Positions 106 to 6,129 of a stretch of 14,890 bases of DNA are shown here, one piece after another. The notes beneath the pieces are model-generated. The model was not told the DNA's origin. It saw nothing but the letters and a program-made list of their open reading frames with translations, and searched no databases. How positions within the stretch are numbered: position 1 is the stretch's first letter; every line of letters begins with the position of its first letter. The translations under genes and the position numbers were made by a program. This DNA is from Escherichia coli (GTDB lineage Bacteria; Pseudomonadota; Gammaproteobacteria; Enterobacterales; Enterobacteriaceae): assembly GCF_003334255.1 (NCBI RefSeq), contig NZ_QOWU01000078.1, one strand, 5' to 3'.

Positions 106-1650
106 TTACAGGTGTACTTCATCAATGTCTAACAATGACTTTTGAAGCACTTCAAAGACTGAACTATGGTCAAAGTCTTTGTTTTCTCGTGCAACTGAAA
201 TACCAGAGAAAGATTTACCATTCAATAAGCGTATAGTTATTTCTTGCTTGTAGTAGTCAAAAATCATCTCTTTGATAAATGACTTTATGGCAAGTTGTAG
301 TTTGATACGTCCCTCTACAGTTTTCCGGTCACTGTCTTGGATATCATTGTCTGACCTTAATGACTGGATAGCTTCAGCCTGTCTTAAATCCTTCTTCTTA
401 GATTCAAGTTCAACACGGTTGTTTGTTATTCTTTGGGCTAATGTGTCAAGGTCACCCAATCCTCTTTCTGCAAGGCTAATTAGGTTATTAATCCCTTTTT
501 CTAGTGATGTGATATCGGCTTTAAGCGTGGTAACAGAAATATTGTCACCATTACTCTTAAGGCTCAGATACTGAAGTGTGGGGAATACCTTTTGAATGAG
601 TATATCTTCAATCAATGAACGGTTAAATGCCTTAGAATTACAACGTCCAAGTTGACGATTACGACATTCAAGATAGCCTCTAGGGTAGCGTCCTTCTGGT
701 GTCTTCTTGGTATTACGCTGACGCAGTGTAGAACCACATTCTGCACACTTGCATATCCCTTTAAAGATATCAATAGAACTTGGTTGTCGTGAGGTTGGCT
801 TCTTGCCTTTGCCTTGACCTCTAATCATCTGTACGGCATGAAACTTTTCTTTTGAAATAGCAGGGGGGAAATAGTCACTGACTCCGTAAGCAACGCCAAT
901 TAGAGACTCCTTTAATAAAAGGTCACGTACTCTTGTAGGTGTCCAGCCTGTGTCTACCTTTTTATTCGTAATGGTGGGGATGTTTTCAAGATTTAAATCT
1001 CTGGCGATTGCATGTAGTGATTTTCCTGAAAGTTTTTCGTCAAAGATTCTATGAATTGTTTCTACGTGGTGAGGTATTAACGAAAATGATTTTCCGTCAG
1101 AATTGAGTTTTAACCATCCGGGGCAATTACCGGTTATCTTTGTTCCATCCTGTTCAAACTGTTGTCGTTTATGTGACCATACCTTTTTAATACGGTCAGA
1201 TTTAATAACAGACTCGTTATGGCTACGCTCTTGTAGGATAATCATTCTGATTAATGCGAGAGAATCATCAAGAGATTGGCGGTTATACGTTTCACCGTCG
1301 CTTAGAGTGACAACCGTAATACCTTGCTCAAGAATAGCCCTGATAGTTTCCTGTGCATGGCTGATTGACTGACGGCTTACACGGTCTAACGATTCCACCA
1401 GCAAGACAGAATCTGGCGGTATCAGACCTTGCTTAACAGCTTCAAGAAAAGCCCTGAGTGCTCCACCTTCTTTTAGATGGTCACCGTGAAAGGCTGAACG
1501 ACCTAAATCTTCAAAACTAAGAGATTCGTCTAGGATGTGGTCTGGATGGCTGGCTAACCAATCCTGTATGGCCTTACTCTGTCTTCGATGACTATCACCA
1601 AAAGCTTGTTTCGTTGACGAAAAGCGAATGTAACTGTAAACCTTCCTCAT
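106..1650 (-). CDS. Large serine recombinase (serine integrase; resolvase-type catalytic domain + recombinase domain + zinc ribbon + C-terminal coiled coil)
   Basis: 514-aa ORF. N-terminus YIRFSSTKQ fits the resolvase/invertase catalytic serine motif. A Cys cluster (CKCAECGS...YLECRNRQLGRCNS) fits the zinc-ribbon domain, and the C-terminus is heptad-rich and coiled-coil-like. An in-frame stop lies 6 codons upstream of the ATG, and there is no clear Shine-Dalgarno sequence. Confidence 0.85.
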   Translation of the reverse strand: MRKVYSYIRFSSTKQAFGDSHRRQSKAIQDWLASHPDHILDESLSFEDLGRSAFHGDHLKEGGALRAFLEAVKQGLIPPDSVLLVESLDRVSRQSISHAQETIRAILEQGITVVTLSDGETYNRQSLDDSLALIRMIILQERSHNESVIKSDRIKKVWSHKRQQFEQDGTKITGNCPGWLKLNSDGKSFSLIPHHVETIHRIFDEKLSGKSLHAIARDLNLENIPTITNKKVDTGWTPTRVRDLLLKESLIGVAYGVSDYFPPAISKEKFHAVQMIRGQGKGKKPTSRQPSSIDIFKGICKCAECGSTLRQRNTKKTPEGRYPRGYLECRNRQLGRCNSKAFNRSLIEDILIQKVFPTLQYLSLKSNGDNISVTTLKADITSLEKGINNLISLAERGLGDLDTLAQRITNNRVELESKKKDLRQAEAIQSLRSDNDIQDSDRKTVEGRIKLQLAIKSFIKEMIFDYYKQEITIRLLNGKSFSGISVARENKDFDHSSVFEVLQKSLLDIDEVHL

Positions 1651-1668
1651 CTGTATATTTATCCAGTA
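1649..1668. promoter_or_regulatory. Candidate LexA (SOS) box abutting the recombinase start codon
   Basis: The plus strand reads CTGTATATTTATCCAG (CTG-N10-CAG, AT-rich spacer), 13/16 identical to the dinB SOS box core. On the minus strand it reads TACTGGATAAATATACAG immediately followed by the ATG. Confidence 0.45.
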
Positions 1669-1704
1669 CTATAATGACTCTATGACCAGATTATAAGGGG
1701 TGTT

Positions 1705-1734
1705 TTAGGAAGTGAAAATCATGATTTTACGCAT
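1705..1734 (-). pseudogene. dinB: dinB (DNA polymerase IV) 5' end, truncated: 14 nt of dinB (ATGCGTAAAATCAT) fused to element DNA, giving a 9-codon ORF (MRKIMIFTS*)
   Basis: The minus strand reads GAGGTGAGCA-ATGCGTAAAATCAT, matching the recalled dinB ribosome-binding site and start (MRKI from MRKIIHVDMD...). The sequence diverges after codon 4 and hits TAA at codon 10. Confidence 0.7.
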
Positions 1735-1750
1735 TGCTCACCTCTCAACA

Positions 1751-1770
1751 CTGGTAAAGTATACAGTGAT
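1751..1770. promoter_or_regulatory. dinB: dinB promoter LexA box
   Basis: The minus strand reads CACTGTATACTTTACCAGTG, identical to the recalled dinB SOS operator, about 16 bp upstream of the dinB ATG at 1734. Confidence 0.8.
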
Positions 1771-1804
1771 TTCAGGGTTTGAGAAATGCGTAAAGATTCA
1801 GCAT

Positions 1805-5920: not shown

Positions 5921-6097
5921 ACTCAATAATGGCTGGTCATGCTTTAATGTTGCAGTGTATCCCGGATCGTTTCTGAACAAACTTAATAAACCATTATTAT
6001 AAAATTAACATATATATTTCAGTTAATTATGTAAAAACATCCGTTTATTAAATTACTCATGGATTGTCGCTGTTGCTCATTTGAGCTACAATTCAAG

Positions 6098-6113
6098 CTG
6101 AATAAATATACAG
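6098..6113. promoter_or_regulatory. LexA box in the dinJ-yafQ promoter
   Basis: CTGAATAAATATACAG (CTG-N10-CAG, AT-rich spacer), about 17 bp upstream of the dinJ ATG. dinJ is a known damage-inducible gene. Confidence 0.7.
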
Positions 6114-6129
6114 CACAGGAGATACCCCA

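Follow-up and report, generated by a model that had tools for sequence, protein, structure and literature searches.

A serine recombinase element found in both orientations in Escherichia coli dinB, with a probable LexA operator against its recombinase start codon

Introduction

What controls the recombinase of a mobile element that has inserted between an SOS gene and its promoter, and does such an element bring an SOS operator of its own? The question is raised by a 14,890-nucleotide stretch of Escherichia coli DNA (assembly GCF_003334255.1, contig NZ_QOWU01000078.1; here the window), in which positions 1649-1770 form a hybrid attachment-site junction where the host gene dinB, represented by its promoter and the first 14 nt of its open reading frame (ORF), meets a phage-like element with a large serine recombinase (LSR) gene at this end. 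The gene that is split encodes DNA polymerase IV (Pol IV), the principal mutagenic polymerase of the E. coli SOS response. An earlier reading made from the letters of the window (the sequence-only reading) had noticed two tandem LexA-type boxes upstream of the recombinase, one belonging to dinB (box 1) and one to the element (box 2), and had proposed that recombinase expression, and hence mobilisation, is wired to DNA damage; it had called direct capture of a host SOS promoter by an insertion unusual. Our analysis favours box 2 as a true LexA operator carried by the element, one that would gate all transcription into the recombinase gene, with the dinB promoter (PdinB) adding SOS read-through only in the orientation found in the window; we give this reading a probability of roughly 0.55.

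Results

A LexA-type box against the recombinase start codon

The second CTG-N10-CAG box that had been described inside the element was confirmed: its core (CTGTATATTTATCCAG, 1651-1666) lies directly against the recombinase ATG (Table 1). The full 20-mer matches the consensus TACTG(TA)5CAGTA at 16 of 20 positions and combines the two triplets with an AT-rich spacer. On a heterology index of the Berg-von Hippel/Lewis type, for which dinB, dinJ and ruvAB served as internal controls, the values were 4.85 for box 2 and 7.14 for the dinB box, both within the range of 0.95-10.5 spanned by the 30 E. coli LexA sites used for training. Since the published index for Salmonella dinP is 6.80 (PMC8072944), against our 7.14 for dinB, the two scales are comparable. 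Among 300 dinucleotide-preserving shuffles of the window none contained a site reaching 4.85, and sites reaching 7.14 arose at 0.007 per window. Elsewhere in the window one site alone falls at or below an index of 10.5, the dinJ box (AGCTGAATAAATATACAGCA, 6096-6115, index 6.0), which stands 15 bp upstream of dinJ (from 6130) and, being outside the training set, serves as a positive control. When about 250 kb of natural E. coli loci were scanned, the sites at or below index 9 were dinB, dinJ, ruvAB, box 2 and one unknown site, and no others. Three variants of box 2 were seen, scoring 4.85, 5.57 and 6.5, with substitutions confined to the spacer and the CTG and CAG triplets always kept; a further change, in a metagenome copy, falls in the flank outside the 16-mer core. 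Judged by these scores, box 2 very probably works as a binding site for LexA.

Two further sequences were recorded alongside these scores. In metagenome contig OKMN01000093.1 (L024) the recombinase starts with GTG in place of ATG (plus strand CAT>CAC), a change at what is also the second base of the box 2 20-mer, and the CTG-N10-CAG core is intact. A LexA-like site with index 7.6 (GACTGGTTGCGTATACAGTA, L010 33456-33475) lies at the 3′ end of the tyrosine integrase gene of a thrW-linked island in strain TUM9757. An origin of box 2 as a copy of the host dinB operator acquired through imprecise excision was rejected: outside the motif there is next to no similarity, and the distance from the start codon is 44 nt as against 14 nt.

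Read along the minus strand from the recombinase ATG outwards, box 2 is followed by the TATAAT/TTTTCA promoter, the dinB start, the dinB ribosome-binding region, the dinB SOS box and the dinB promoter. PdinB lies about 100 bp upstream of the recombinase gene and points at it, as had been claimed, and no terminator-like site is predicted between 1500 and 1900, hence none between PdinB and the recombinase ATG. The dinB operator is likewise present, although the position first given for it, 1751-1770, was off by 2 nt, and the reported 13 of 16 identities between the two cores require that the minus strand of the dinB box be compared with the plus strand of box 2. The minus-strand TATAAT proposed as a -10 element does have a -35 partner, TTTTCA, 17 bp upstream. 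This pair is conserved in both main lineages, the NGF1 variant included; its predicted start is near 1683, and box 2 thus falls at +16 to +35. The weaker alternative promoter, which has a TTTATA-18-TATATT equivalent in NGF1, would start near 1661, inside box 2, which would then occupy -7 to +13.

Table 1. Features at the junction of dinB and the element (window coordinates; a dot marks features given without a strand)
Feature	Position	Strand	Sequence or description	Basis or remark
Large serine recombinase gene	106..1650; ATG 1650-1648	-	514 amino acids; element integrase	ORF and Pfam
Element-borne LexA box (box 2)	1649..1668	.	20-mer ATCTGTATATTTATCCAGTA	Index 4.85; triplets kept in variants
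Weaker alternative recombinase promoter	1668..1696	-	TTATAA, 17-bp spacer, TATAGT	8/12 matches
Outward-facing perfect TATAAT	1670..1675	+	3 bp past box 2; poor -35 (2/6)	Would read into dinB body when reversed
Top-scoring element promoter for recombinase	1690..1718	-	-35 TTTTCA (1718-1713), 17-bp spacer, -10 TATAAT (1695-1690)	10/12 matches
Recombinase-proximal attachment-site arm	1698..1720	.	...GGGGTGTTTTAGGAAGTGAAAATC; imperfect inverted repeat of other end	Junction sequences, end alignment
Crossover dinucleotide	1721..1722	.	AT, palindromic	Common to four junction types and K-12 attB
dinB start	1734-1721	-	ATGCGTAAAATCAT	K-12 comparison
First 12 nt of host dinB	1723..1734	-	ATGCGTAAAATC; severed from remaining gene	K-12 comparison
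Host dinB LexA box (box 1)	1749..1768; core CTG-N10-CAG 1751-1766	-	20-mer CACTGGTAAAGTATACAGTG; minus strand CACTGTATACTTTACCAGTG	Same as K-12 operator; index 7.14
Host dinB promoter (PdinB)	1758..1785	-	TTCTCA, 16-bp spacer, TATACT; toward recombinase in window orientation	Promoter scan

Insertion in dinB by a large serine recombinase

In K-12 terms the insertion site is ATGCGTAAAATC-AT-TCATGTGG, directly after nucleotide 14 of dinB and within the ORF; in the window the dinB promoter, LexA operator and first 14 nt lie to the right of the junction and the recombinase end of the element to the left. The crossover dinucleotide is assigned to AT because this is the sole identity common to the four junction types and K-12 attB, and the junctions are clean at AT in both orientations. 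The ends of the element align as imperfect inverted repeats (ATGATTTTCACTTCCTAAAACACCC and ATAATCTTCACTTTCTTATGCACCC), as expected for the two halves of a serine-integrase attP. The recombinase has the canonical LSR architecture, with the Pfam domains Resolvase (1.5e-13), Recombinase (7.9e-13) and Zn_ribbon_recom (1.3e-8), and it also inserts as an LSR does, site-specifically, with a crossover of 2 bp and, next to the gene, arms that form imperfect inverted repeats. It departs from the class in its central dinucleotide, which is the symmetric AT and not an asymmetric pair fixing a single orientation, and two orientations occur.

The recombinase was found in 26 of 5426 complete E. coli genomes, with dinB as its sole location and an identical position in all 26 copies; copies of 96-100% identity are confined to E. 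coli and to dinB. Searches with the recombinase returned only distant Firmicute recombinases from a one-genome-per-species collection and a single distant match from IMG/VR. No phage record holds the element, the nearest relatives there being the YbcK-type recombinases of lambdoid phages (34% identity to the recombinase), and we found no paper on an element in dinB. Comparison of K-12 with six carrier genomes gave element lengths of 5.5-12.4 kb. The predicted excised-circle junction AGTGAAAATCATRATCTTCACT is absent from the metagenome and viral collections searched, and no evidence of an empty site or circle was found in the carriers.

Two orientations at one site

At this single position of dinB the element stands in the window orientation in 8 complete genomes and is reversed in 18, and two metagenome contigs add to the former. 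The window arrangement joins the recombinase end to the side of PdinB; reversal attaches it to the body of dinB, so that recombinase and dinB are divergent, and PdinB reads into the opposite end of the element. With obvious re-sequenced strains collapsed by our own grouping, about 11 reversed and 8-10 window-type lineages remain, which are similar numbers. Strains NGF1 (reversed) and SCU-484 (as in the window) share a 5.5-kb element without a mismatch over 5551 bp, apart from one 7-bp indel, and in their flanking sequences 1 and 3 substitutions were counted per 16 kb; opposite orientations in such near-identical strains argue that the recombination system has been active recently. In the long form, too, one recombinase allele occurs in both orientations (GB089, as in the window, and TUM9757). 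The tandem of PdinB, box 1, 100 bp, box 2 and ATG is one of two states and therefore not a fixed promoter capture. The idea that insertion as such captures the host SOS promoter is not borne out by the 8 and 18 genomes in the two orientations, both of which are found in near-clonal strains.

Serine integrases take polarity solely from the crossover dinucleotide, and since AT is palindromic the element is able to sit either way. A symmetric core is known to let serine integrases join their sites in either alignment (A118, PMC3556126; PMC3783163). A related element in yecE, with a recombinase 39% identical, is oriented the same way in at least 278 genomes, possible exceptions numbering 22 at most, and this near-uniformity makes the orientation freedom special to the dinB element. 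The dinB element is thus an inverted-repeat-flanked segment seen both ways, as in an invertible promoter switch of the Hin/fim type, between strains only. Homologous recombination between the ends was rejected as the cause of flipping: they share only a ~25-bp imperfect repeat, and all junctions fall exactly at AT. The small DNA invertase that the element encodes is a less likely flipping enzyme, as it appears to serve its own internal 1.6-kb segment.

The displaced dinB gene

Insertion places 5.5-12 kb between the dinB ORF and PdinB. At either end the element supplies dinB with a new in-frame GTG start (GTGAAAATCAT or GTGAAGATTAT), the recombinase-end GTG at 1712-1714 (plus strand) restarting the gene in the reversed orientation, and the rebuilt DinB begins MKIIHVD... 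where the normal protein begins MRKIIHVD.... Some RefSeq (PGAP) annotations start a 350-amino-acid DinB at the rebuilt GTG, and dinB carries a pseudogene flag in none of the six element-carrying genomes fetched. Because the ORF is rebuilt with a GTG start, dinB is not simply inactivated, as a host gene would be under a gene-disrupting prophage switch ("active lysogeny") until excision restored it, though it is cut off from PdinB. The outward-facing TATAAT beside box 2 has a counterpart at the far end of the element, 46 bp from the crossover, and next to the far-end TATAAT stands a LexA-like ATG-N10-CAG box with an index of 10.8-12.1.

Other features of the element and its relatives

Besides the recombinase the element encodes a replication-initiator-like protein, a small DNA invertase, a distal-tail (Dit)-like protein and a tape-measure protein; some copies add an HNH endonuclease, and several further ORFs match no family. 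Positions 1 to ~95 of the window are the end of a copy of IS421 (IS4 family) inserted ~10-30 bp beyond the recombinase stop codon (106). This copy is absent from otherwise identical elements, for example that of GB089, and the match of the GB089 type to the window begins at 76. The 12-kb forms hold an internal segment of ~1.6 kb just downstream of the recombinase gene (L017 18180-19896; L010 18290-19896), which is bounded by inverted repeats of 21-26 nt (TCTGTTAAGTATCTTTTCAGG and CCTGAAAAGAG.CTTCACAGA) and contains the small DNA-invertase gene. That gene lies on opposite strands in APEC O18 and TUM9757, and the segment looks like a second, Hin-like invertible switch within the element. About 530 bp of the Dit-like "baseplate" gene (L001 10215-10985) share 92-97% DNA identity with a hypothetical gene of lytic Felix O1-like phages (Felixounavirus), which infect E. 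coli and Salmonella. An identity of this degree points to recent exchange between the chromosomal element and virulent phages, possibly in a satellite-helper relationship.

Recombinases related to this one at 35-39% identity lie within ~10-70 bp of a host gene at four loci (L012, L018, L019, L021), yecE among them. A small resolvase/invertase gene stands near the relative in three of the four loci (L018, L019, L021), and none was called in the L012 stretch examined; in L018 it is followed by a 227-amino-acid ORF resembling one in the dinB element. This recurrence suggests that a large and a small serine recombinase form a conserved module.

Discussion

That the recombinase is wired to the SOS response, as the sequence-only reading held, is the most likely interpretation of this arrangement, in which both boxes score as good LexA sites and PdinB is aimed at the gene with no predicted terminator between them. 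In the mechanism that we favour, the LSR has inserted the element at its AT crossover in dinB, and the element's own high-affinity LexA operator, box 2, would sit downstream of, or over the start of, the element promoter or promoters. Since box 2 touches the ATG, all transcripts, whether they come from the element promoter, from PdinB and flanking host DNA or across the excised-circle junction, must cross it. In undamaged cells LexA on box 2 would silence the recombinase, and LexA cleavage during SOS would release its expression. Box 2 and the TTTTCA-17-TATAAT promoter are constant in both orientations; in the window orientation the SOS-controlled PdinB 100 bp upstream would act as a second, co-regulated source of read-through, and in the reversed orientation it would contribute nothing of the kind. 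That LexA binds, where transcription starts, that SOS induces the recombinase and how any of this affects the element's movement are all inferred from these arrangements.

Several observations weigh against an operator that gates the recombinase. Located at +16 to +35, box 2 would have to repress as a roadblock, which is less usual than overlap with a -35 or -10 element, and the interval between box 2 and the recombinase ATG has no Shine-Dalgarno sequence. The heterology index on which box 2 ranks so well was built on an informal set of 30 E. coli LexA sites. None of the four relatives of 35-39% identity has a LexA site near the recombinase start, so box 2 is no trait of the family as a whole and could be there to serve dinB instead of the recombinase. 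Lastly, excision by large serine integrases normally needs a separate directionality factor (PMC3783163), so transcription of the recombinase alone does not imply excision, and the recombinase by itself is not expected to excise the element. No candidate for such a factor was found among the ORFs of the element, most of which lack a family match. The earlier proposal of damage-wired mobilisation is thus supported as regards wiring of the recombinase, whereas its step to mobilisation is incomplete.

Box 2 might mainly, or also, serve as a replacement SOS operator for the displaced dinB, so that the resident element keeps Pol IV under SOS control, a possibility that we hold tentatively and rate well short of probable. 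The in-frame GTG on both arms, the annotations that start DinB there and the lack of a pseudogene flag in the six carriers agree with it, although the GTG and the symmetry may merely reflect half-site requirements of the recombinase, and the sole Shine-Dalgarno-like runs lie 1 nt or ~11 nt from the GTG. An outward TATAAT stands 45-46 bp from the crossover at both ends, and box 2 would span -34 to -15 of the outward promoter at the recombinase end, the classical position for repression; yet the outward promoters have very poor -35 hexamers (2-3/6) and fall below the consensus scan. Reversal places box 2 44 bp upstream of the rebuilt dinB start, and its 13/16 identity with the dinB box lies in the polarity facing dinB, but in the window orientation box 2 points away from dinB. 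The LexA-like box beside the far-end TATAAT agrees with this reading, but it has ATG in place of CTG and an index beyond the training range. That relatives inserted elsewhere lack LexA boxes also speaks for a role in dinB.

The orientations themselves could be the regulated trait: flipping, or excision and reinsertion, would alternate the target of PdinB and the end that feeds dinB, giving heritable variation in Pol IV and recombinase, a feedback loop that includes the two LexA boxes, and more recombinase under SOS in the window orientation. Near-isogenic strains with an identical element in opposite orientations, the roughly equal numbers of independent lineages (~11 reversed versus 8-10) and the constancy of the yecE relative fit such a two-state switch. 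We nevertheless regard it as quite unlikely: a palindromic core alone predicts random orientation with no need of a selected function, orientations differ between strains only, with no sign of heterogeneity within populations, the excised-circle junction was not found in metagenome and viral collections, and recombination of attL with attR by serine integrases normally requires a directionality factor, for which the element offered no candidate. It is very unlikely indeed that box 2 is a fortuitous palindrome without regulatory role. The region is AT-rich, and the 72-bp leader has 3 differences between the window and NGF1, a divergence not below that of the gene overall (~4.5%); against this, 0 of 300 shuffles gave a site as good, real E. 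coli sequence almost never scores so well outside known SOS boxes, and the substitutions all fall in the spacer with CTG and CAG untouched. A broader proposal, which we consider unlikely, is that the element is specialised for the 5′ end of dinB: it would flip via its palindromic crossover, rebuild the dinB start at the end turned toward the gene and tie both recombinase and Pol IV to damage through its own LexA operator, with orientation setting the boost from PdinB, and so form a heritable damage-responsive switch on a mutagenic polymerase.

If LexA does gate the recombinase through box 2, as we favour, DNA-damaging antibiotics would mobilise or flip an element inside the gene for Pol IV. 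Among the carriers are NC101 and NGF1, two strains in wide use in which the element is reversed, as well as pathogens, APEC O18 for example; in carrier strains dinB regulation should not be assumed to be K-12-like. The locus also makes testable the question of whether SOS regulation is restored by the very element that has separated a gene of this response from its promoter, and a natural serine integrase with a symmetric crossover opens the loss of insertion polarity to study in nature.

SOS control of mobile-element recombinases is already known, for the ccr genes of SCCmec and for integron intI. In staphylococcal SCCmec the LSR genes ccrC1 and ccrAB are under LexA repression (PMC5397144), and the dinB element resembles that system as a chromosomal mobile element with a LexA site, a probable one here, within or close to the promoter of its LSR gene, whose expression is raised by damage, as shown for ccr and predicted here. 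The two differ in host clade and LexA motif, and SCCmec inserts in orfX, which is not an SOS gene; in the dinB element, known here from sequence alone, the box abuts the ATG and a host SOS promoter can lie upstream. Integron integrases are under SOS control through a LexA box over the intI promoter (PMC3108266), likewise a gamma-proteobacterial CTG-N10-CAG box at a site-specific recombinase gene. In contrast to the dinB recombinase, whose relatives lack the box, IntI is a tyrosine recombinase and its box overlaps the -10 element of PintI and is conserved in the family.

What is unusual here, beyond what the sequence-only reading had singled out, is that the element has inserted in an SOS gene, that its natural crossover is palindromic and both orientations occur, and that it rebuilds the start of its target at both ends. 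Some prophages rebuild their targets, among them e14 and phage 21 in icd and the integrators in tRNA genes. As in e14 and phage 21, the dinB element supplies a substitute for the displaced end of its target gene; it differs in replacing the 5′ end, start codon included, in doing so at both of its own ends, and in leaving the gene severed from its regulated promoter. With the integrases of A118, Bxb1 and phiC31 the recombinase shares domain architecture, a 2-bp crossover, an attachment site 70 bp from the start of the integrase gene and imperfect inverted-repeat ends, and with A118, which inserts in comK, it shares insertion within a host ORF. In those model systems symmetric cores are known only as engineered variants (PMC3556126), whereas the natural crossover of the dinB element is the palindrome AT and both orientations are found in nature.

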